Of a DNA stretch of 64,000 nt, positions 24,050-34,700 are shown piece after piece; the first letter of the stretch is position 1, and each line of letters starts with the position of its first letter. A program made the translations under genes and the position numbers. Source of the DNA: an uncultured Myxococcales bacterium (lineage in GTDB: Bacteria > Myxococcota_A > UBA9042 > DTJE01). The stretch covers positions 12,027-76,026 of the forward strand of contig CAIOFV010000106.1 of assembly GCA_903857665.1 (NCBI GenBank), written 5' to 3'. The notes beneath the pieces are model-generated. The model ran no database searches. It was given only the letters and a program-made list of their open reading frames with translations, and was not told where the DNA came from.

Positions 24050-24223
24050 CTACACCCCTCCGGCCTCCCTGAGGATGGCCTTAGCGGTCACTTCGTTGAT
24101 CTCCGCATGTCGCGGAATCGGGATCTCGCGTTCACCCTTGACCCACACGTCATGCCGTCCGCCATGTCGGGCCAGCCGCCACCCCGACTCCCGCAGCACC
24201 TTTTCCAGGTAACGCCGCTTCAC
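24050..24223 (-). CDS. hicA: HicA mRNA-interferase toxin (57 aa; absent from the ORF track)
   Basis: My translation from GTG 24223: MKRRYLEKVLRESGWRLARHGGRHDVWVKGEREIPIPRHAEINEVTAKAILREAGGV. It has the G.H catalytic motif and IPRH, and sits directly upstream of hicB. Confidence 0.85.
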   Translation of the reverse strand: MKRRYLEKVLRESGWRLARHGGRHDVWVKGEREIPIPRHAEINEVTAKAILREAGGV

Positions 24224-24469
24224 GATCGGATCCTACACGTTTCTGTGTAGCAGAGCAAGGGCCCGGACCAGGGATCCACTCCCCGAATGCCAGGTTCACC
24301 ACCCGTGCATTGGCCGCAAGCGACCTTTCCCACCCGGACCACCCCTGATTCCATTGAATTCCCCGCCGAAGCGACCCTGAAATATCGCGGCAGAACCTGC
24401 AATGTTTCGCTCCACACGCCAGCCACGATGAAACTCTGTCCCGCTTACCTGCCCCCCCCCCATCCACCC

Positions 24470-24627
24470 AGGCCCCGAGGGGCCGGCCGGGCATCGCGAG
24501 GGACCGGACGGCGCGGCCGGGGGACGGGTGTGCCTGCGCAGCGTTCAGGCGCGAACGAACGCGATGCCGCAACCCACCTTGGGTAGAGGGCATCCTACGC
24601 GAAGCCAGACACCCGCTTGGGTCACCC
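24470..24627 (-). repeat. ~155-bp repeat, right copy (inverted relative to 21334-21490)
   Basis: Reverse-complement alignment by eye with the left copy. Confidence 0.85.
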
Positions 24628-24823
24628 GTGCGCGCCGGCCCGCGGAGCAGGCACCCCGTTCCCCGGCCCACCACGCCCCGAACCCGCCGGCCCCGCCCCA
24701 CACCGTACCCGGATCACCCGCGGGAGACTTGTACCCACACCCCAAACAAACCCTATTGAAGTCCGCGTTTTGCAACCCCGCATTCAACCTCATCCCCCGT
24801 CCCCGCCTCTCGCAATCCCCTCA

Positions 24824-24838
24824 TGGCACGCCTCTTGC
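24824..24838 (+). promoter_or_regulatory. Sigma54 (-24/-12) promoter of the hydrogenase operon
   Basis: TGGCACG-CCTC-TTGC is an exact match to TGGCACG-N4-TTGC, 80 bp upstream of the hydC ATG. Confidence 0.75.
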
Positions 24839-24918
24839 CAAGGCCGGGAGCAGGAACGGGAAACGTCCGCCCGGTCGGCGGAGCGAGGCCCGGTGAACGC
24901 GGAGGAGGTAAGAAGACG

Positions 24919-25458
24919 ATGGCGGACAACGCTGCAACGTGCACCTGCGAGGCCGTTCCCGAATCGGAACTGCTGTCGCGGCTGGAAGGGGTGATCGCGG
25001 AATACCGCGAAAAGCCCGGAGCCCTGATCCCGGTGCTCCAGATCGCCCAGGGGATCTTCGGGTACCTTCCCGAGGTCGCGCTGAAGCGGATCGCGGTCGG
25101 GCTGGACAAGCCCTTCAGCGAGGTCGCGGGCGTGGTCAGTTTCTACTCGTTCTTCAGCACGCAGCCCCGCGGACGGCACCTGGTCCGCGTGTGCCTGGGC
25201 ACTGCCTGCTACGTCCGCGGCGGCAAGCAGGTCCTCGACGGCCTGAAGGCGAAGCTGGGCTGCGACGTCGGGCAGACGACCGCCGACCGGAACTTCACGC
25301 TGGAAGTCGCCCGCTGCTTCGGCGCCTGCGGCCTCGCGCCCGCCATGATGATCGACGACGACGTGCACCAGCGGGTCAAGCCTGCGCGCCTGCAGGCGAT
25401 CCTCGACCGCTACGCGGCCGAGCCTGGTGACGTTCAACCCATTCCCGGAGGCGAGTGA
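24919..25458 (+). CDS. hydC: [FeFe]-hydrogenase gamma subunit (NuoE/HydC-like, [2Fe-2S])
   Basis: LIPVLQIAQ, VSFYSFF, VCLGTAC and CFGAC; GGAGGAGG RBS. Confidence 0.92.
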   Translation: MADNAATCTCEAVPESELLSRLEGVIAEYREKPGALIPVLQIAQGIFGYLPEVALKRIAVGLDKPFSEVAGVVSFYSFFSTQPRGRHLVRVCLGTACYVRGGKQVLDGLKAKLGCDVGQTTADRNFTLEVARCFGACGLAPAMMIDDDVHQRVKPARLQAILDRYAAEPGDVQPIPGGE

Positions 25459-25460
25459 CC

Positions 25461-28400
25461 ATGACGACCAGGAAGCGCATCGAATCCGTGACCGACCTCC
25501 AGGCGCTGTGCGAACGTGCGCGCCGCGAGGCCACCACCGCGGGCGCCAGCCCGGACCGTCGCCAGGTCCTGGTGTGTACCGGCGGCGGCTGCATCGCGTC
25601 CGGCTCGCTGGACGTGGTGTCCAGTTTCCGCCGCACGCTGGCCGCCAAGGGCCTGGACGCCCACGTCCAGTTGCTGGAAACCGGCTGCCTGGGACCCTGC
25701 GCGCAGGGCCCGGTCGTGGTCGCGTACCCCGACGGGACCTTCTACCAGCAGGTGAAGCCGGCCGACGTGGACGAAATCGTCGACAGCCACCTGCTGCGCA
25801 ACACCGTGGTCAGCCGCCTGGTCAACCGCCACAGCGGCACCGGCGAACTGGTCCCGCTGATGAAGGATCTCGAGTTCTTCTCGAAGCAGGTCAAGATCGT
25901 GCTGCGGAACTGCGGCATCGTCGACCCGCTGAAGATCGAGGACTACGTCGCGCGTGACGGCTACGCGGCGCTGGCCAAGGCGCTGACACAGATGACCGGC
26001 GATCAGGTCATCGACGAGATCAAGGCGTCCGGCTTGCGCGGCCGCGGCGGCGGCGGCTTCCCGACGGGCCTCAAGTGGGCCTTCGCGAAGAAGTCCCCGA
26101 ACCCCGTGAAGTACGTGCTGTGCAACGCCGACGAAGGCGACCCGGGCGCGTTCATGGACCGCTCGGTGCTGGAAGGCGACCCCCACAGCATCATCGAGGC
26201 CATGGCGATCGCCGGCTACTGCATCGGCGCGACCGAGGGCTTCGTGTACGTCCGCGCCGAGTACCCGCTGGCCATCGAGCGCCTGGGCATCGCGATCCAG
26301 CAGGCTCGTGACGTCGGGCTGCTGGGCAAGAACATCCTGGGCACCGGGTTCGACTTCGACCTGGAGATCCGCAAGGGTTCGGGCGCCTTCGTCTGCGGCG
26401 AGGAAACCGCGCTGATGCGGTCCATCGAAGGCTGCCGCGGCGAGCCGCGCCCCCGTCCGCCCTTCCCGGCGGTCAAGGGCCTCTGGGACAAGCCGTCGCT
26501 GCTGAACAACGTCGAGACGTACGCCAACATCGCGCCGATCCTGCTGAAGGGCTCGGCGTGGTACGCGGCCTACGGCACCGCCAAGTCCAAGGGCACCAAG
26601 GTGTTCGCGCTGGCCGGCGCGGTCCGCAACACGGGCCTCGTGGAAATCCCGATCGGTATGCCGCTGGGCGAGCTGGTGTTCGAGGTCGGCGGCGGCGTCC
26701 CCGGCAACAAGAAGTACAAGGCGGCGCAGATGGGCGGCCCCTCCGGCGGCTGCATCCCCACCGAGCACCTGGGCGTTCCGGTCGATTACGAATCGCTGAT
26801 CGAGCTGGGCGCCATCATCGGGTCCGGCGGCCTCATCGTGATGGACGACGACGCCTGCATGGTGGACGTCGCCCGCTTCTTCCTGGAGTTCTGCCAGGAC
26901 GAGTCCTGCGGCAAGTGCGCGCCGTGCCGCATAGGCACCAAGCGCATGCTGGAGATCCTCGAGCGCATCTGCGACGGCAAGGGCGTCGAAGGCGACGTCG
27001 AGCGCCTGATCGACCTGGGCAACACCATCAAGGACACCGCGCTGTGCGGCCTGGGCCAGACGGCGCCGAACCCGGTCCTGTCCACGATCCGCTACTTCCG
27101 CAGCGAGTACGACGCGCACATCCGGGAAAAGAAGTGCCCGGCCGGCGCCTGCACCGCGCTGGTCCGCGCCCCGTGCCAGAACGCCTGCCCCGCGGGCGTG
27201 GACGTGCCCGGCTTCGTGTCGCTGGTCGGCGAAGGCCGCTACTCGGACGCCATGAAGTGGCATCGGGACCGCAACCCGCTGGCATCGATCTGCGCACGTG
27301 TCTGCTTCCACCCCTGCGAGTCCAAGTGCCGCCGCGTCACGCTGGACACCCCGGTGGCCATCCGCGGCATCAAGCGTTTCATGGTGGACCAACCGGTGGA
27401 CATGGAACTGCCCGAAATGCGCCCCGTCGCGGCCAATGCCAAGCGCAAGGTCGCCATCATCGGCGGTGGGCCCGCGGGCCTGTCGGCGGCATACTTCCTG
27501 GCGCGCCTGGGCTACACCCCGACGGTCTTCGAGGCGGAAAGCAAGGCCGGCGGCATGCTGGTCCAGACCATCCCGGCGTACCGCCTGCCCCGCGAGCGCC
27601 TGGAAGCGGAAATCAAGCTCATTGAGTCGATGGGCGTGACGATCCTGACGGGCAAGCGCCTGGGTCGCGACTTCACCCTGAACGGTCTGCGCGGCGAAGG
27701 CTACAAGGCCGTGTTCCTGGGCGTCGGCGCCATGAAGGGCAGCACCCTGGGCCTGCCGAATGAAACGGCGGACGGCGTGGCCGAGGCCCTTTCCTTCCTG
27801 AAGGCCGCGAACATGGGCACCGGCGTCACCGTGGGTCGTCGCGTCGCCGTCATCGGCGGCGGCAACGCGGCCATCGACGCGGCCCGCACCGCCAAGCGCC
27901 TGGGCGCCGAGGAAGTCACGATCGTCTACCGCCGCCGCCGCAACGAAATGCCGGCATGGGAAGTCGAGATCGACGAGGCCCTGACGGAAGGCGTGATCCT
28001 GGAAACCCTGGTGGCGCCCGTCGAAGTGGTCGTGGAAAACGGCCGCGTGATCGGCCTGGCCTGCCAGCGCATGGAACTGGGTTCCTACGACAAGTCCGGC
28101 CGCCGGCGTCCCGTCCCGATCAAGGGCGCCCTGTTCACGATTCCCGTCGATCAGATCGTCGCCGCCGTCGGCCAGTCGGTCGAGTCTGCCGGCCTGTTCG
28201 GGGACGTTCCCGTCACGCTGAACCGTGACGGCACCGTGAAGGCGGATCCGCTGACCGGCCGCACGTCGGTCGAGTGGCTGTTCGCGGGTGGCGACGCCAC
28301 CGTCGGACCGTCCTCGGTCGTCGAGGCCATCGCCGCGGGCGAGAGGGCCGCGGCGGGCATCGACGAGGCCTTGACCGGCGCCAACCACGCCTTCTGGCGG

Positions 28401-28595
28401 GAGCATCGGGTTGTCGACACGGCCTTCGATCCCGACGCCGATCCGGTGTACCTGCAGCGGGCGCACGAGTGCCTGCGGCCGGTGGCCGAGCGCACGGGTT
28501 CCTTCGCCGAGGTCGAGCTGACCTGGAGCGAGACCGTGGCCCGGGGCGAGGCGCGGCGCTGCCTGCGCTGCGACTACCGGGAGTCGTGCAACTGA
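25461..28595 (+). CDS. hydB: [FeFe]-hydrogenase beta subunit (NuoF/HydB) fused to a GltD/NfnB-like FAD/NADPH oxidoreductase
   Basis: VCTGGGC..GCLGPC, GLRGRGGGGFPTG, NADEGDPGAFMDR, GAFVCGEE and SCGKCAPCR, then PCQNACP/CARVCFHPCESKC, GGGPAG and GGGNAAID...YRRR. Confidence 0.92.
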   Translation: MTTRKRIESVTDLQALCERARREATTAGASPDRRQVLVCTGGGCIASGSLDVVSSFRRTLAAKGLDAHVQLLETGCLGPCAQGPVVVAYPDGTFYQQVKPADVDEIVDSHLLRNTVVSRLVNRHSGTGELVPLMKDLEFFSKQVKIVLRNCGIVDPLKIEDYVARDGYAALAKALTQMTGDQVIDEIKASGLRGRGGGGFPTGLKWAFAKKSPNPVKYVLCNADEGDPGAFMDRSVLEGDPHSIIEAMAIAGYCIGATEGFVYVRAEYPLAIERLGIAIQQARDVGLLGKNILGTGFDFDLEIRKGSGAFVCGEETALMRSIEGCRGEPRPRPPFPAVKGLWDKPSLLNNVETYANIAPILLKGSAWYAAYGTAKSKGTKVFALAGAVRNTGLVEIPIGMPLGELVFEVGGGVPGNKKYKAAQMGGPSGGCIPTEHLGVPVDYESLIELGAIIGSGGLIVMDDDACMVDVARFFLEFCQDESCGKCAPCRIGTKRMLEILERICDGKGVEGDVERLIDLGNTIKDTALCGLGQTAPNPVLSTIRYFRSEYDAHIREKKCPAGACTALVRAPCQNACPAGVDVPGFVSLVGEGRYSDAMKWHRDRNPLASICARVCFHPCESKCRRVTLDTPVAIRGIKRFMVDQPVDMELPEMRPVAANAKRKVAIIGGGPAGLSAAYFLARLGYTPTVFEAESKAGGMLVQTIPAYRLPRERLEAEIKLIESMGVTILTGKRLGRDFTLNGLRGEGYKAVFLGVGAMKGSTLGLPNETADGVAEALSFLKAANMGTGVTVGRRVAVIGGGNAAIDAARTAKRLGAEEVTIVYRRRRNEMPAWEVEIDEALTEGVILETLVAPVEVVVENGRVIGLACQRMELGSYDKSGRRRPVPIKGALFTIPVDQIVAAVGQSVESAGLFGDVPVTLNRDGTVKADPLTGRTSVEWLFAGGDATVGPSSVVEAIAAGERAAAGIDEALTGANHAFWREHRVVDTAFDPDADPVYLQRAHECLRPVAERTGSFAEVELTWSETVARGEARRCLRCDYRESCN

Positions 28596-28645: not shown

Positions 28646-30445
28646 ATGGTGAACCTGACGATCAACGGCTCCCCGGTCCAGGCGGCTGACGGCGCGACCG
28701 TCCTGACCGCAGCGAAGGCGGCCGGCATCAACATCCCGACCCTGTGCTACCTGGAAGACGTCCAGGCCATCGGCGCCTGTCGCGTCTGCATGGTCGAGGT
28801 CGAGGGCGCCCGCACGCCGGTGCCGGCGTGCGTTGCCCCCGCCACCGAAGGCATGAAGGTTCGTACCAACAGCCAGCGTGTCCGCGACGCCCGTCGCACG
28901 GTCATGGAACTGCTGATGTCCGACCACGCCGGCGACTGCAAGACGTGCGATCGCAACGACGATTGCGAGTTCCAGGCCCTGGCGCGCGACCTGGGGATCC
29001 GCCAGATCTCGTGGCCGGGCGACATCAACCCGCCTCACCTGGACACATCGACGGCGGCCCTGGTCCGCGATACCGGCAAGTGCGTGCTGTGCCGCCGCTG
29101 CGTCACCGTGTGCAACGGCACGCAGGCCGTGGGCGCCCTGTTCCCGCAGTCCCGCGGCTTCAAGACGGTCGTGGGCCCGGCGTTCGGCCGCGACCTCGAC
29201 ACGGTCACCTGCGTGCAGTGCGGCCAGTGCTCGGCCGTCTGCCCCGTGGGCGCCATCAGCGAGCGCGACGACACCGACAAGGTGTGGGCCGCCCTCGAGG
29301 ACCCGGTCAAGTTCGTCGTCGTGCAGACGGCGCCTGCCATCCGCGCGGCGCTGGGCGAGGAGTTCGGCTATCCGGCCGGCACGCTGGTCACCGGCAAGAT
29401 GACGGCGGCCCTGCGCCGCCTGGGCATCAACGCCGTGTTCGACACCAACTTCACGGCCGACCTCACGATCCTCGAGGAAGGGACCGAACTGCTGATGCGG
29501 CTGAAGGCCGCGCTGGCGCCCGATCCGCACGGCCACGCAGAAGGTCACCATGCCCACGGCCCCCTGCCGCTGGCGACGTCCTGCTGCCCCGCGTGGATCA
29601 AGAACTGCGAGCACTTCCACCCGGACTTCCTGCCGAACCTGTCCACCTGCAAGTCGCCCCAGCAGATGTTCGGCGCGGCGGCCAAGACCTACTACTCGCG
29701 CACGATCGCCAAGCACCCGTCCGACATCTTCGTGGTGTCGATCATGCCGTGCACCGCCAAGAAGTTCGAAGCCGAGCGGCCCGAGATGGAGTCGTCCTGG
29801 CAGCGGGACGTGGACGTGGTGCTGACCACCCGCGAGCTGGCCCGGATGATCAAGGAAGCCGGCATCGACTTCAGAAACCTGCCCGATGAGCAGATGGACC
29901 AGCCGATGGGCATGTCCACCGGCGCCGCGGACATCTTCGCCAACACCGGCGGCGTGATGGAAGCCGCCTTGCGCACCGCGTGGGAAATCGTCACCGGCCA
30001 CCAGTTGCCGTTCGACGGCCTGCGCGTGACCCCGATCGAGGGCATGGAGGGCGTCAAGGAGGCCTCCGTGACCTTCAGCGGCTGCACGGACGACTGGAAG
30101 TTCCTGGAAGGCGTCACGGCGAAGGTCGCCGTCGCCCACGGTCTGGCCAACGCCAACAAGGTCGTGGACAGCATCCGCAAGGGCGAGGCCTCGTACCACT
30201 TCATCGAGTTCATGTCCTGTCCCGGCGGCTGCATCGGCGGGGGCGGGCAGCCCCGGCTGACCACCGACACGGTCCGCAAGGCGCGTACCGACGCCATCCG
30301 GCGCGAGGACCAGGGCAAGGGCATGCGCAAGTCCCATGAAAACCCGCAGGTGCGGGCGGTCTACGAGGCGTTCTTCAAGACGCCGAACTCGGACCTGTCG
30401 CACCGATTCCTTCACACCCATTACTTCGGGCGAGACCGGGTGTGA
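28646..30445 (+). CDS. hydA: [FeFe]-hydrogenase catalytic subunit (group A)
   Basis: H-cluster motifs TSCCPAW, MPCTAKKFE and EFMSCPGGCIGGGGQP; N-terminal [2Fe-2S], His-ligated and 2x[4Fe-4S] motifs. Confidence 0.96.
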   Translation: MVNLTINGSPVQAADGATVLTAAKAAGINIPTLCYLEDVQAIGACRVCMVEVEGARTPVPACVAPATEGMKVRTNSQRVRDARRTVMELLMSDHAGDCKTCDRNDDCEFQALARDLGIRQISWPGDINPPHLDTSTAALVRDTGKCVLCRRCVTVCNGTQAVGALFPQSRGFKTVVGPAFGRDLDTVTCVQCGQCSAVCPVGAISERDDTDKVWAALEDPVKFVVVQTAPAIRAALGEEFGYPAGTLVTGKMTAALRRLGINAVFDTNFTADLTILEEGTELLMRLKAALAPDPHGHAEGHHAHGPLPLATSCCPAWIKNCEHFHPDFLPNLSTCKSPQQMFGAAAKTYYSRTIAKHPSDIFVVSIMPCTAKKFEAERPEMESSWQRDVDVVLTTRELARMIKEAGIDFRNLPDEQMDQPMGMSTGAADIFANTGGVMEAALRTAWEIVTGHQLPFDGLRVTPIEGMEGVKEASVTFSGCTDDWKFLEGVTAKVAVAHGLANANKVVDSIRKGEASYHFIEFMSCPGGCIGGGGQPRLTTDTVRKARTDAIRREDQGKGMRKSHENPQVRAVYEAFFKTPNSDLSHRFLHTHYFGRDRV

Positions 30446-30514
30446 CGCGGGCGTACCCGGCGTCCAGCGACCGTACCTCCTCGCTGGGCGCCGGGCACCA
30501 CTACTGTTGGAGTG

Positions 30515-30584
30515 GCCCGAGGCGACTCCGGCTGCGGCAAGAGATTGCAAACGCAATCCCTCGCCTCCGCCTTCGTGCTCGGGA
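30515..30584 (+). repeat. 70-bp palindromic dispersed repeat, copy 2
   Basis: GCCCGAG...CTCGGGA ends with central GATTGC-AAAC-GCAATC. Confidence 0.9.
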
Positions 30585-30595
30585 TGAGTGGAGTG

Positions 30596-30619
30596 GCCCG
30601 AGGCGACTTTGGCTCGGGC
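30596..30619 (+). repeat. Internally deleted 24-bp mini copy of the 70-bp repeat
   Basis: GCCCGAG-GCGACTTTGG-CTCGGGC. The 20-mer TGGAGTGGCCCGAGGCGACT is duplicated at 30508 and 30589. Confidence 0.8.
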
Positions 30620-30664
30620 GGATCCGGTATGCTAGCCCGCGTGCCCGGGTCGCAGGAGTATCCG

Positions 30665-32707
30665 ATGGCCGTCCTCTGGACGATCCCCGAACGGTGCCGA
30701 CGCTGCTACACCTGCGTCCGGGACTGTCCCGCGAAGGCCATCCAGGTCGTAGGGGGCCAGGCCCGCGTCGTGCCCGAGCGCTGCATCGCCTGCGGCAACT
30801 GCGTGAAAGTGTGCGCCCAGGGCGCCAAGCGCGTCCGGGACGACATCGAGGAAGTGCAGGCCCTGCTGGCCGGCGACAAGCCGGTGTTCGCCTGCGTGGC
30901 GCCGTCCTACCCGGCGGCCTTCGACACGGTGGAACCGGGACGCGTCATCCAGGCGATCCGCGCGCTGGGCTTCGCCGAGGTGTGGGAGGTCGCCTTCGGG
31001 GCGGAACTGGTGGCCCCGGCCTACCTGCGCCTGTTCAACGAGGCCCGGAGGACCGGGAAGCCGGTGATCGCCACGCCCTGCCCTGCCGTCGTGACCTACA
31101 TCGAAAAGTACCTGCCCGAACTGCATGACTACCTCGCGCCGGTAGTGTCGCCCAAGATCGCGGTGGCGCGGGCGATCCACCAGAAGCACAACGGCAACGT
31201 CCGCGTGGTCTTCATGGGACCGTGCGTGGCCAAGAAGCAGCACCTCCACACCGAATCGAACAGCGCGCTGGACGCGGTGCTGACGTTCGACGAACTGAAC
31301 CGCATGTTCATCGCGGCGGGCGTGGACCCCGCCGATCAGCCCTTGAGCAGCTTCGACGGGCCGCGCGCCCACATCGGGCGGACCTTCCCCATCAGCGGCG
31401 GGCTGCTGAAGACCGCCGGCATGGGCGCGGACCTGCTGGACGGCGAGATCGTCGGCACCGAGGGCAAGGACCGGGTGCTGTCCACGCTGAAGGACCTGGC
31501 CGCCGGCCGCTCCCATGCGCTGTTCTATGACGTGCTGTTCTGCGAGGGCTGCATCGACGGCCCGATGATGCTGAACAACCTCAGCGTACTGGCCCGCAAG
31601 GAACTGCTGGTGCGTCACATCAACGACCGCGCGCGCTTCGTGTCGCATCGCGAGCTGGCCGAGTCCCTGGGCGAGTTCGAGGGCCTGGACCTGTCGCGGA
31701 CGTTCGAGCGGGAAAACCTGAGCCTGCCCCAGCCTCCCGAGGAGGACATCGTCCGGACGCTGGAGCGCATGCGCAAGGCGCTGCCCCAGGACCAGCTGAA
31801 CTGCGGCGCCTGCGGCTACCCGACGTGCCGGGAAAAGGCGATCGCCGTGTGCCAGGGGCTGGCCGAACCGGCGATGTGCCTGCCCTTCCTGGTCGACGAA
31901 CTGGAGCAGGTCGTCACGGACCTGCGCCAGTCGCACGAGGAGCTGGCGACCACACAGAAGCAGTTGCTGCGATCCGAGCGGCTGGCCTCGATGGGCCAGC
32001 TGTCGGCGGGCATCGCCCACGAGCTGAACAACCCGCTGGGCACGATCCTCCTCTACAGCCACATGCTGATGCGCGAGGTCCGGGACGACCGCGGCAAGGA
32101 GGATCTGCAGCTGATCGTCAGCGAGGCCACCCGCTGCAAGGACATCGTCCGCGGCCTGCTGGACTTCGCCCGCAAGTCCCGGGTGTCCAAGGCGCCGGCC
32201 GACCTGCGCGAGGTGATCGAGGAGGTCGCGGGGATCGCCCGGCCTCGCGCCGGCGAGATGCGCGTCGAGGTGACCACGTCGGTGGCCGACGACATGCCGG
32301 TGCTGATGATCGACCGGGTCCAGTTGCGGCAGGCCCTGGTCAACATCGCCATGAACGCGGTGGACAGCATGCCCGGCGGTGGCACCCTGCACCTGGCCGC
32401 GCGCATGTCCGATTCGGGCGACGACGTGCGGATCGAGATCACGGACACCGGCTGCGGCATCCCGCCCGAAAACCTCAGCCGCCTGTTCACGCCGTTCTTC
32501 ACCACCAAGGCGATGGGCAAGGGCACCGGCCTGGGCCTGGCGATCACCTACGGCGTGATCAAGATGCATTCGGGCGACATCACGGTCGACAGCGAGGTCG
32601 GCAAGGGCACGTCCTTCACGATCCGCCTCCCAGTGCGGACCGCGGAGGCGGTCGGGGACGATGGAAGCGCGCGGGAGTACCGCGTCGAGGAACAGTATTT
32701 CCGGTAG
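30665..32707 (+). CDS. Sensory-type [FeFe]-hydrogenase domain fused to a histidine kinase (group C1-like)
   Basis: 2x[4Fe-4S] ([23 protein letters not shown]), divergent H-cluster motifs TPCP / GPCVAKK / FCEGCIDGP, FeS domain [11 protein letters not shown]-box AHELNNPLG and an HATPase domain. Confidence 0.88.
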
Positions 32708-32750
32708 ACTGCGCCGCGGGTACACTCGCCGCGCGGCAGTGGAGGACACG

Positions 32751-33134
32751 ATGAGCGACGTGAAGAAGGTTCTGCTGGTGGACGACGACGCGGACCTGGT
32801 AGCGGTCAACCGTGCGGTGCTGGAAAACCACGGGTTCGCGATCGCAACGGCGTACTCGGGCCCGAAGGGCCTGGTGGCCGCGAAGGCCGAGGCGCCGGAC
32901 CTGATCGTGCTGGACGTGATGATGGGGACCAACAGCGAGGGCTTCGACCTGGCGCGCGCCCTGAAGAAGGACGAAGCCACGAAGCACATCCCGCTGATCA
33001 TGGTCACCTCGGTCAACACGACGGTGCCCTTCAAGTTCGAGCCGGACGCGAAGTACCTGCCGGTGGACCGTTTCCTGGAAAAGCCCCTGGCGCCCGAGGC
33101 GCTGCTGAAGGAAGTCCAGGGCATGCTTTCCTGA
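32751..33134 (+). CDS. Single-domain response regulator
   Basis: LVDDD, LDVMM (phospho-Asp), MVTS, LEKP. Confidence 0.9.
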   Translation: MSDVKKVLLVDDDADLVAVNRAVLENHGFAIATAYSGPKGLVAAKAEAPDLIVLDVMMGTNSEGFDLARALKKDEATKHIPLIMVTSVNTTVPFKFEPDAKYLPVDRFLEKPLAPEALLKEVQGMLS

Positions 33135-33206
33135 GTTCCCGCCGGAGCCGCAGTCGCCTCGGGCCCGCTCCGTGTGTTCCCGAGTACCCAGCCCGCGGAG
33201 GTCATC

Positions 33207-34700
33207 ATGACCGATCGACCCAGCCGAATCCTGGTCGTGGACGATGAAGTCGGGATGCGGGAGGGCTGCCGCCGCATCCTCGCCGCCGAGAACTACGAGG
33301 TGGAAACGGCCGAGGACGGGCAGGCGGCCCTCGAAAAGTTCAAGGCCGCCGGCGGGTTCGACGTGGTCATTTCCGATCTGAAGATGCCCCGCATGGGCGG
33401 CATGGACCTGATCGAGGCGCTGCACGTCATCGACGAGGACGCGCTGCTGCTGGTCATCACGGCCTACGCGACGATCGACACCGCGGTGGACGCAACCAAG
33501 CGGGGCGCCTACGGCTACATCCCGAAGCCGTTCACGCCCGACGAGCTGCTGCTGCACGTGCGCAACGGGCTGGAAAAGCGCGCCTTGCGGATCGAGGCCA
33601 AGGCGCTGCGCGAGGAACGCGAGCGCCGCCTGCTGGAGGTCGCGTTCGAGCGGTCGAAGTCCACGACGATCCTCCACTGCATGACCGATGGCGTGCTGGT
33701 GGTGAACCGCGAGGGCCGCATCGTGCTGCGCAACGCGGCGCTGTCCCGCATCCTGCCGTCGTGCGCCGAGGAGCCGATGGCTGCGCCGGTGGTCGAGGCG
33801 GTGGACCTGCCCGAACTGGTGTCCCTGGTGATGGAGGTCGTGCAGGCCGACGCGCCGATCATCGCCTCGAAGGAGCTGACCATCGGGCCGTGCACGTACA
33901 TGGTCAACGCGGCGCCTGTGCTGGAACCGTCGGGCGAAACGCTGGGCGCGGTGGCCGTGCTGCGCGACATCACGGCGCTGAAGAAGCTGGAAATCGCGAA
34001 GTCCATGTTCGTGTCGATGGTCGCCCACGAACTGAAAAGCCCGCTGGCGACGATCGAGTCGTCCCTGAACATCGTGCTGACGGGCATCGCCGGCGAGGAC
34101 CCGGAACGCGACCGCCAGATGATGCAGCGCGCGCTGCTTCGGGCCACCACGCTGCGCACGCTGGTGTCGGACCTGCTGAACCTGACCGCCATCGAGACGG
34201 GCAACTTCAGCCTCAAGCGCCAGCACGCCGACCTGTGCAGCATCGTCCGCGAAACGGTGGACGCCTACACGGACAAGGCGGCCGAAAAGAACGTGACCCT
34301 GCACCTGGAGTGCCAGGACGCGTCCCCCATCGACCCGATCCTGGCCGACCCGAACGCGGTGCGCAGCATCGTCACCAACCTGGTCGACAATGCCGTCAAG
34401 TACACGCCCGAAGGCGGCCAGGTGAACGTCCGCGTGGACGGCAACGGCCTGTATGCCAGGGTCGTGGTGAAGGACTCGGGCATCGGCATGTCGGCCGCCG
34501 AGCGCGATCGGATCTTCGACGAGTTCTACCGCGTCAAGAACGACTACACCGCGCACGTGCCGGGCACCGGCCTGGGCCTGACGCTGGTGCGCCGGCTGGT
34601 GGACATGCACCAGGGCCGCATCGACGTGGACTCGGCGCCCGGCAAGGGCAGCGCATTCGCCGTCAGCCTCCCGACCGTCGCCTACGCCACCGGGATGTAG
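33207..34700 (+). CDS. Hybrid receiver-PAS-histidine kinase
   Basis: N-terminal receiver (VVDDE, SDLKMP, PKPF), PAS, AHELKSPL, NLVDNAVKY and GTGLGL. Confidence 0.92.
   Translation: MTDRPSRILVVDDEVGMREGCRRILAAENYEVETAEDGQAALEKFKAAGGFDVVISDLKMPRMGGMDLIEALHVIDEDALLLVITAYATIDTAVDATKRGAYGYIPKPFTPDELLLHVRNGLEKRALRIEAKALREERERRLLEVAFERSKSTTILHCMTDGVLVVNREGRIVLRNAALSRILPSCAEEPMAAPVVEAVDLPELVSLVMEVVQADAPIIASKELTIGPCTYMVNAAPVLEPSGETLGAVAVLRDITALKKLEIAKSMFVSMVAHELKSPLATIESSLNIVLTGIAGEDPERDRQMMQRALLRATTLRTLVSDLLNLTAIETGNFSLKRQHADLCSIVRETVDAYTDKAAEKNVTLHLECQDASPIDPILADPNAVRSIVTNLVDNAVKYTPEGGQVNVRVDGNGLYARVVVKDSGIGMSAAERDRIFDEFYRVKNDYTAHVPGTGLGLTLVRRLVDMHQGRIDVDSAPGKGSAFAVSLPTVAYATGM

Follow-up and report, generated by a model that had tools for sequence, protein, structure and literature searches.

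Hydrogenases of the HydABC type set the H2 level at which fermenters and syntrophs still reoxidise NADH. They belong to the Bfu family. In the current view of these enzymes, the bifurcation site consists of FMN, cluster B1 and the C subunit's [2Fe-2S] cluster C1, the mid-potential substrate feeds B1 by way of the A subunit, and NAD(H) reacts at FMN (PMC11829005, PMC12018979). A variant of the B subunit, named 'sub-type I' BfuB, has the C-terminal B3/B4 domain replaced by DPD_II and a C-terminal FAD/NAD(P) domain (Zheng and Huang, 2024, mSystems, PMC11406978). Its hosts belong to Hydrogenedentota, Spirochaetota, Pseudomonadota, Planctomycetota, Verrucomicrobiota, Kiritimatiellota and Thermodesulfobacteriota. 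According to the same study, no biochemical work on it exists, and its FAD is speculated to form a second bifurcation centre (PMC11406978). An NfnL-like domain is also known from group A [FeFe] hydrogenases (Xiao et al., 2025, PMC12018979). Here we describe a hydB-gltD fusion gene (hydB* below) that lies between hydC and hydA in a 64,000-nucleotide stretch of contig CAIOFV010000106.1, from an uncultured Myxococcales bacterium. This whole stretch is called the window, and all of its features given below are on the forward strand. By their domains, hydC, hydB* and hydA encode the three subunits of a HydABC/Bfu-type [FeFe] hydrogenase.

The architecture is that of the published sub-type I BfuB, to which the locus adds a Myxococcota member. 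New here are the circular permutation of the GltD module, the assignment of its C-terminal tail, an argument from a lysine/glutamate difference against a bifurcating FAD, and a thermodynamic rationale for an NADP(H) branch. Tentatively, and somewhat short of even confidence, we propose that the locus represents a multi-phylum family that bifurcates electrons of H2 to NAD+ and NADP+, with no ferredoxin, via a non-bifurcating FAD.

The locus shares with sub-type I BfuABC the BfuB architecture, a HydA of the M3 type and a C-B-A gene order without BfuD, as in members from outside Hydrogenedentota. Its identity to close homologues of Hydrogenedentota, Phycisphaerae, Lentisphaerae and Acidobacteria is about 67%. 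For Hydrogenedentota and Phycisphaerae proteins of this architecture the value is 66-68%, a proxy for clade placement. It differs in its host, which is a Myxococcota metagenome-assembled genome, and in its HydA, which has TSCCP and a His-rich insert whereas the sub-type I partners examined have TSCSP. It differs also in the sensory hydrogenase/kinase gene that follows hydA, an arrangement tied to sub-types IV and V in the published account. That account includes neither the permutation nor the lysine ligand, and it favours a possibly bifurcating FAD (PMC11406978). A first reading of this DNA from its letters alone (the sequence-only reading) had stated that such fusions are noted in surveys with no characterised example. 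The two surveys bear this out (PMC11406978, PMC12018979), and no PDB chain spans both halves of the protein, by sequence or by fold.

Fusion of a bifurcating-type NuoF core to a second module

The G+C content of the window is about 68%, so many of its open reading frames (ORFs) are spurious, and true genes were told by the G+C content of third codon positions (GC3). The hydB* gene (25455-28595) encodes 1046 amino acids and starts either at a GTG at 25455, which overlaps the hydC stop, or at an ATG at 25461. Its frame is uninterrupted over 1046 codons, with a uniform GC3 of 0.92. A word-based homologue search considered at least 8000 candidates. The best 120 matches are all 994-1052 amino acids long, have the identical domain set and are 64-95% identical; the sources named among them are Myxococcota, Phycisphaerae, Pirellulales, Hydrogenedentota, Lentisphaerae and Acidobacteria. 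Full-length fusions reach down to 38% identity in an exhaustive search of 50%-identity representatives.

The fusion could in principle be an artefact, that is, a frameshift, chimeric assembly or pseudogene uniting hydB with a neighbouring gltD-like gene. Such a join is conceivable because several genomes of the same phylum have adjoining separate B genes and GltD-containing A genes. However, the frame is open with even GC3, and more than 100 full-length homologues, which come from six phyla or more, have the same junction and the order C-B-A. In an alignment of 56 homologues, to which the conservation statements below refer, H555, C561, C566, P573, C574 and C578 at the junction are invariant. 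A full-length copy is present in 12 of the 151 genomes sampled from the same phylum, including all four genomes of the genus. The order hydC-(small hydD-like gene)-hydB*-hydA recurs in Lentisphaerae, Phycisphaerae and Acidobacteria, in assemblies independent of one another. Since the junction is invariant and synteny is conserved, a frameshift or an assembly join is rejected, and the chance of any such artefact is negligible. The fusion noted in the sequence-only reading is confirmed. Its genomic link to a catalytic HydA is conserved: hydC lies upstream and hydA downstream, and this arrangement is kept in the three other phyla.

Some related genomes carry a separate HydB-like gene followed by a permuted-GltD gene, as in NfnABC/Stn. 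Examples include G036:C57, G109:C21, G122:C474, G137:C117 and G005:C5. Deletion between such adjoining B and A genes could have given the fusion.

The N-terminal half of the protein resembles solved HydB subunits. Residues 35-570 match HydB of A. woodii (7q4v_B, E 1.5e-237), NiFe-HydB (7t2r_B) and HydB of T. kivui (8a6t_B), and the HydB core also matches StnB (E 1.7e-202). A thioredoxin-like [2Fe-2S] domain (B5 site; residues 35-110, 25557-25784; Pfam 2Fe-2S_thioredx) stands at the N-terminus with C41, C46, C78 and C82. The last two cysteines are invariant and the first two are conserved in at least 90% of the sequences. The NuoF core (residues 189-555, 26019-27119), delimited by Pfam, PDB matches and invariant columns, comprises the FMN/NADH site, an SLBB domain and the four-helix bundle of B1. 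Its Pfam matches are Complex1_51K at residues 189-360 (E 6e-44), SLBB at 384-431 and NADH_4Fe-4S at 471-555 (E 5e-35). The FMN/NADH site GRGGGGFPTG occupies residues 196-205. The ligands of the [4Fe-4S] cluster B1 in the four-helix bundle are C485, C488, C491 and C531, which are invariant or nearly so.

Losey et al. (2020, PMC7311640) tell bifurcating beta subunits from non-bifurcating ones by A/E and M at positions 232 and 234, F at the FMN site and GGPSG. These markers are present here as A232/M234 within NADEGDPGAFMDR (residues 224-236), F312 within GAFVCGEE (310-317) and GGPSG at 427-431, and they are invariant in the alignment. The core ends in part of the Zn 'hinge' (B2), H555-x5-C561-x4-C566 (27117-27152; HIREKKCPAGAC, residues 555-566), which is likewise invariant. 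The Zn site of HydB is described in PMC9499530 and PMC11829005 and was modelled as cluster B2 in earlier work. In the family it consists of one His and three Cys; here H555, C561 and C566 are in place, and C468 and C506 are candidates for the third Cys. By these motifs, nothing of the bifurcating core is missing from the B subunit, which has the N-terminal [2Fe-2S] cluster, the FMN/NADH site, B1 and the Zn hinge.

The C-terminal 2x[4Fe-4S] ferredoxin-like domain (B3/B4) is absent from the fusion protein; the 1046 residues contain neither a Pfam Fer4 dicluster nor a pair of CxxCxxCxxxCP motifs, both of which are present in the canonical BfuB on C122 of this genome. The absence of this domain had been claimed in the sequence-only reading together with the bifurcating-type NuoF motifs and the Cys/His site, all of which are found at the residues given above. 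The locus is similar to the canonical HydABC of T. maritima (7p5h), A. woodii (7q4v) and T. kivui (8a6t) in HydC, HydA and HydB 35-570, at 46-57% identity, and in its Zn hinge and bifurcation markers. Unlike them, it lacks B3/B4 and has an added 475-residue FAD/NADPH module.

No NCBIfam model covers the fused protein, which scores below every cutoff, and relatives are therefore named 'NuoF' or 'HndC'. The label 'NADP-reducing hydrogenase HndC' on one relative reflects only similarity to NuoF and was set aside. HndC has an ordinary B3/B4 domain.

The permuted GltD module and its FAD

About eight residues past the last hinge cysteine, B3/B4 gives way to the 475-residue module. Profile and motif matches identify it as a circularly permuted GltD/NfnL-type unit with two [4Fe-4S] clusters, FAD and an NADPH site. 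The first part of its Fe-S domain (DPD domain II, Fer4_20) covers residues 571-648 (27165-27398) and is recognised by Pfam and alignments; it contains PCxxxCP, Cx3Cx3Cx3C and K640. The Pfam Fer4_20 match itself extends over residues 562-648 (E 2e-18). The FAD and NADPH Rossmann domains follow at residues 665-962 (27447-28340; Pfam Pyr_redox_2 E 8e-29, and alignments). Their motifs are GGGPAG (670-675), IPAYRLP (706-712), GGGNAAID (801-808) and YRRRR (825-829), and the AlphaFold2 model has a predicted local distance difference test score (pLDDT) of 80-96 over this region. The C-terminal tail (residues 999-1041, 28449-28577) ends in an invariant R1035-C1036-L-R-C1039 and is the permuted first segment of Fer4_20.

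The standard order in NfnB, GltD and DPD is RCLxC first and PCxxxCP second. Here RAPCQNACP begins at residue 571, and RRCLRC stands at 1034-1039, seven residues ahead of the stop. HMMER places the tail on the N-terminus of Tma NfnB and on residues 540-567 of Csac NfnA. When residues 999-1041 are placed before residue 571, the Fer4_20 score rises from 68.6 to 93.0 bits and the profile coverage widens from 30-109 to 3-109. C1036 and C1039 are invariant, and the RCLxC ending is present in 41 of the 41 permuted-type modules whose sequence reaches that region. The tail is modelled with a pLDDT of 83-89, and Foldseek lays the predicted fold onto 9bov_A over 475 columns with a root-mean-square deviation of 3.7. 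The tail most likely gives two Cys ligands to the distal [4Fe-4S] cluster. Two other assignments were considered and dropped. The last 85 residues, seemingly 'extra', are the first segment of the Fe-S domain rather than a linker or a site for a new cluster, and C1045, a possible third Cys of a NuoG N5-like Cx2Cx5C, is unconserved in the alignment.

The closest matches to residues 571-1040 are, in descending order, Csac NfnA 101-567 (E 1.3e-122), S. ovata StnC 101-569 (E 1.2e-104) and T. sibiricus NfnA. T. maritima NfnB (E 1.9e-88), P. furiosus NfnL, GltD and DPD match more weakly. From these alignments the module is circularly permuted, with boundaries equal to those of the GltD insert in NfnA/StnC. 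The large subunit of NfnSL, GltD and the N-terminal domains of DPD (4ylf_B, 5jca_L, 6s6s, 1h7x) have the same fold, two [4Fe-4S] clusters, FAD and NADPH. However, their order is non-permuted, with RCLxC first, and NfnL has a Glu ligand and an NfnS partner. A maximum-likelihood tree of the modules (45 sequences, 411 columns) splits all permuted modules from SL-type NfnB with a support of 100/100, and its backbone is unresolved.

NfnABC and StnABC (9bov, 8oh5, 9n5u) are Bfu-type NADH-dependent ferredoxin:NADP+ transhydrogenases with a BC core homologous to the one described here. They share with the fusion the GltD permutation and its boundaries (NfnA 101-567), the lysine at the ligand position of the proximal cluster, and the NADPH motif. 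Their module, however, is inserted in a NuoG-like A subunit, on the mid-potential input branch, and they reduce ferredoxin via B3/B4. Here it is the B subunit that carries the module, at its C-terminus where B3/B4 would be, and a hydrogenase serves as the A subunit.

Csac NfnA, S. ovata StnC and Tma NfnB are described in the literature as NADPH-dependent. The YRR of the NADPH motif is invariant in the alignment and identical in these three proteins, which agrees with the NADPH-type nucleotide site claimed in the sequence-only reading. The order of Fe-S, FAD and NADPH elements in that reading also stands, by Pfam and motifs; what it overlooked is that the tail belongs to the Fe-S domain.

The ligand at position 640 bears on the nature of the FAD. 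K640 is invariant in the clade and aligns with K170 of Csac NfnA and of StnC. In Csac NfnA the cluster next to the FAD, A7, is held by C108, C147, C151 and K170. In StnC, K170 ligates the cluster next to the FAD, and the K170A and K170C variants are inactive. The FAD-proximal [4Fe-4S] cluster of the fusion is thus probably Lys-ligated via K640. Bifurcating NfnL-type proteins have a Glu at the aligned position (PMC12018979); Tma NfnB and the NfnB of the same genome, on C105, have Glu as well. In StnC/NfnA the FAD reportedly does not bifurcate (PMC10482914, PMC12018979).

Zheng and Huang's view is that the FAD is a second bifurcating centre, which would split the electron pair of NADPH as in NfnSL and give the enzyme two bifurcation centres (PMC11406978). 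The sequence-only reading had also called the second flavin possibly bifurcating. The module is indeed homologous to bifurcating NfnL, the Arg of IPAYRLP is conserved, and the distant fusions P0149, P0150, P0155 and P0156 have a Glu at the ligand position. Nevertheless, several features speak against this view. The clade has an invariant Lys instead of Glu, and the topology is permuted as in the non-bifurcating modules of NfnA/StnC. A single Fe-S chain leads out of the FAD, and the operon contains no NfnS-like [2Fe-2S]/FAD partner gene and none like NfnA. The same conserved Arg is present in StnC/NfnA, where it makes no contact with flavin N5 (PMC10482914, PMC12018979). A bifurcating FAD in this clade is accordingly improbable, and that part of the sequence-only reading is not supported.

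Position 640 varies in distant NuoF-GltD fusion clades (35-44% identity): besides the four Glu-type proteins above, His is present in P0142, P0252 and P0169, and Arg in P0270. Some of these clades have an altered NADPH motif (YHR, DRR). By their ligand, the Glu-type distant fusions appear to be better candidates for a truly bifurcating FAD. A class of proteins of about 650 amino acids contains only the B1 four-helix bundle (NADH_4Fe-4S) and the permuted GltD module (P0224, P0252, P0257, P0261, P0267, P0270, P0279). NCBIfam PRK12771 appears to model something like this class.

Proposed electron path and its energetics

The electron path, stoichiometry, coupling and independence from ferredoxin that we infer for this enzyme would be as follows. 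H2 would be oxidised at the H-cluster, and its electrons would pass via the HydA clusters to B1 and FMN. The 'flavobicluster' of FMN, B1 and C1 would split them. One path would reduce NAD+ at FMN, and the other would exit via the mobile [2Fe-2S] cluster C1 of HydC, as in other Bfu enzymes. The low-potential branch would then run from C1 to the distal [4Fe-4S] cluster, the Lys-ligated proximal [4Fe-4S] cluster, the FAD and NADP+, in place of B3/B4 and ferredoxin. The FAD would gather two electrons as an ordinary two-electron/one-electron converter, as in StnC/NfnA. The net reaction would be reversible: 2 H2 + NAD+ + NADP+ <-> NADH + NADPH + 2 H+. Judged by motifs and by analogy to the characterised enzymes, the chances are about even that bifurcation takes place at FMN/B1/C1, with NADP(H) replacing ferredoxin on the low-potential branch and the FAD acting as a simple converter.

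The energetics of such a branch can be calculated. The H2 couple is at -414 mV at 1 bar and shifts by about 29.6 mV per decade. If E' is taken as about -280 mV for NAD and as about -380 mV for NADP (Table 1, PMC9304861), the H2 couple falls between the NAD and NADP couples from about 3 Pa to about 7 kPa H2. A bifurcating donor has to lie between its two acceptor couples in this way. A 1:1 mixture of NADH and NADPH equilibrates with about 150 Pa H2, and NADH alone with about 3 Pa. In the H2-evolving direction, NADPH would therefore pull NADH oxidation up to about 150 Pa H2. The interval from about 3 Pa to 7 kPa is the range of anoxic habitats. Placing NADP(H) on the low-potential branch would thus be energetically sensible.

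The next question is whether ferredoxin still takes part. In NfnABC of T. sibiricus, ferredoxin binds between the C-terminal domain of NfnC and the ferredoxin-like domain of NfnB (PMC12018979). The fusion protein lacks the NfnB-type ferredoxin-like domain and with it, probably, this ferredoxin site. A four-substrate Hyd/Nfn hybrid would keep ferredoxin in play by docking it at the distal [4Fe-4S] cluster of the module, in the manner assumed for NfnL. Such a complex would link H2 and ferredoxin with both NAD(H) and NADP(H). In NfnL, a homologue of the module, two [4Fe-4S] clusters lead to ferredoxin (PMC10482914), the distal cluster appears to lie at the junction, the usual place of B3, and the genome makes reduced ferredoxin, as it encodes pyruvate:ferredoxin oxidoreductase (PFOR) and other 2-oxoacid:ferredoxin oxidoreductases. 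Such a hybrid is nonetheless quite unlikely. The ferredoxin site seen by cryo-electron microscopy in a Bfu enzyme needs the B-subunit domain that is absent here (PMC12018979), and in the closest relatives, NfnA/StnC, these clusters serve as wires within the protein and do not act as sites for ferredoxin.

Another possibility is that the enzyme has two nucleotide sites and no coupling between them. In such a dual-cofactor hydrogenase, NADH at FMN and NADPH at FAD would exchange electrons with the H-cluster independently, with neither bifurcation nor confurcation, and the enzyme would let the cell vent H2 or take it up with either of the two nucleotide pools. The sites for both nucleotides appear intact, and non-bifurcating NADH-dependent HydAB(C) enzymes are known (PMC7311640); one of that type is encoded on C82 of this genome. 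However, the family keeps all bifurcating marks, namely A/M, F, GGPSG, the N-terminal [2Fe-2S] cluster and the Zn hinge. Moreover, if FMN and FAD were wired together ungated, the enzyme would be a futile NADPH-to-NAD+ transhydrogenase. It would dissipate the NADPH/NADH disequilibrium built by the cell's own NfnAB, a canonical pair on C105 that could turn reduced ferredoxin and NADH into NADPH. We consider the uncoupled enzyme unlikely, though worth keeping in view. The rest of the genome context, comprising PFOR, NfnAB, HydG/F/E and the Rex genes in relatives' operons, fits a bifurcating hydrogenase with an NADP(H) branch.

Several points weigh against the NADP(H)-branch proposal. Neither the literature (subscription-only papers aside) nor the PDB holds an assay or a structure of this architecture. 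At high pressure H2 can reduce both nucleotides uncoupled, so there are conditions in which thermodynamics does not demand bifurcation. The small B3/B4 domain is mobile, and a 50-kDa module attached to the Zn 'hinge' may not behave in the same way. The tree, with its unresolved backbone, gives no specific sister placement of the module with NfnA/StnC. The Lys/Glu rule is drawn from a small number of characterised enzymes, and the papers on them call the meaning of the difference unclear (PMC12018979).

The variant is abundant, with at least 120 full-length fusions and its presence in 12 of 151 phylum genomes, and metabolic reconstructions currently label it NuoF, HndC or canonical bifurcating hydrogenase. 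Were NADP(H) to replace ferredoxin, electron balances, H2 thresholds and ATP yields would need correcting for many uncultured lineages; those affected would be in Planctomycetota, Hydrogenedentota, Lentisphaerota, Acidobacteriota and Myxococcota. The Bfu family would gain a new substrate arrangement. Trace H2 could supply anaerobes with NADPH, or NADPH could help them to dispose of NADH as H2, between 3 Pa and 7 kPa. The enzyme would also offer a natural test of the Bfu mechanism, in which the same flavobicluster feeds a flavin and NADP+ instead of ferredoxin. The Lys, Glu and His variants at residue 640 across the fusion clades are a ready-made series on what makes a GltD-type FAD bifurcate.

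Neighbouring genes and other hydrogenase loci

The hydC (bfuC) gene (24919-25458) encodes the NuoE-like [2Fe-2S] subunit with cluster C1 (Pfam 2Fe-2S_thioredx E 6.5e-49; NCBIfam NuoE/HoxE-type). Its start is most likely the ATG at 24919, which follows GGAGGAGG. The GC3 specific to this frame climbs only from about 24,900. A 211-amino-acid ORF call from 24823 is probably too long, because 24823 falls in a sigma-54-like element after about 800 bp with no coding signal. This element, TGGCAC-N5-TTGC (TGGCACgcctcTTGC, 24824-24839), is of the -24/-12 type and lies about 80 nucleotides 5' of the hydC ATG. It has one mismatch to TGGCACN5TTGCW; with an expectation of about 1.3 matches of this quality per window, it is not significant alone and is only suggestive as a promoter element. 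The stretch of about 800 bp without coding signal 5' of hydC extends from 24050 to 24900, and an Rfam scan of the window found no riboswitch or leader in it at gathering thresholds.

The hydA gene (28646-30445) starts fifty bases 3' of hydB*, with the Shine-Dalgarno sequence GAGGAGG, and encodes the catalytic [FeFe] hydrogenase of 599 amino acids (Pfam Fe_hyd_lg_C E 2.6e-95). It scores 839.6 bits against NCBIfam NF040763 ('NADH-dependent [FeFe] hydrogenase, group A6'; cutoff 765). The H-cluster motifs are intact: P1 is TSCCPAW, P2 is MPCTAKKFE and P3 is FMSCPGGCIGGGGQP. The proton-relay Cys is retained in TSCCPAW. A His-rich insert of nine residues, PDPHGHAEG, lies immediately N-terminal to P1 (residues about 276-292, window 29470-29520). 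The HydA partners in Lentisphaerae, Phycisphaerae and Acidobacteria, like the second HydA of this genome, have TSCSPGW and no insert.

Directly 3' of hydA, the genes at 30512-34700 form a probable H2-sensing phosphorelay, judging by their domains. The first (30512-32707, Pfam) encodes a sensory [FeFe]-hydrogenase-like protein (TPCP/GPCVAKK/FCEGC) with HisKA-HATPase, and its true start may be 3' of 30512. It is followed by a receiver-only response regulator (32661-33134; Pfam Response_reg 1.1e-17) and a hybrid receiver-PAS-histidine kinase (33174-34700, Pfam). Rex, receivers or sensory hydrogenases are often near the homologous hydB* operons. Rex adjoins these operons in two of the three other phyla named above, which points to the NADH/NAD+ ratio as a likely control.

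The genome contains further loci with related modules. In a second [FeFe] hydrogenase operon (C82:8005-18936), HydB is short and has the non-bifurcating residues T/K, Y and GGASG, and HydA has TSCSP. Genes for a GAF histidine kinase and for the maturases (hydG, hydF and hydE) come next. At C122:132-3276, a canonical BfuC stands with a BfuB that has B3/B4 and a K for M at position 234. A NuoG-like protein of only about 260 amino acids without a catalytic domain follows, and the third substrate is not evident. At C3:8733-10463, a 576-amino-acid frame encodes a further permuted Lys-type GltD module with a 2x[4Fe-4S] ferredoxin domain after it; this module is on a very long branch of the maximum-likelihood tree.

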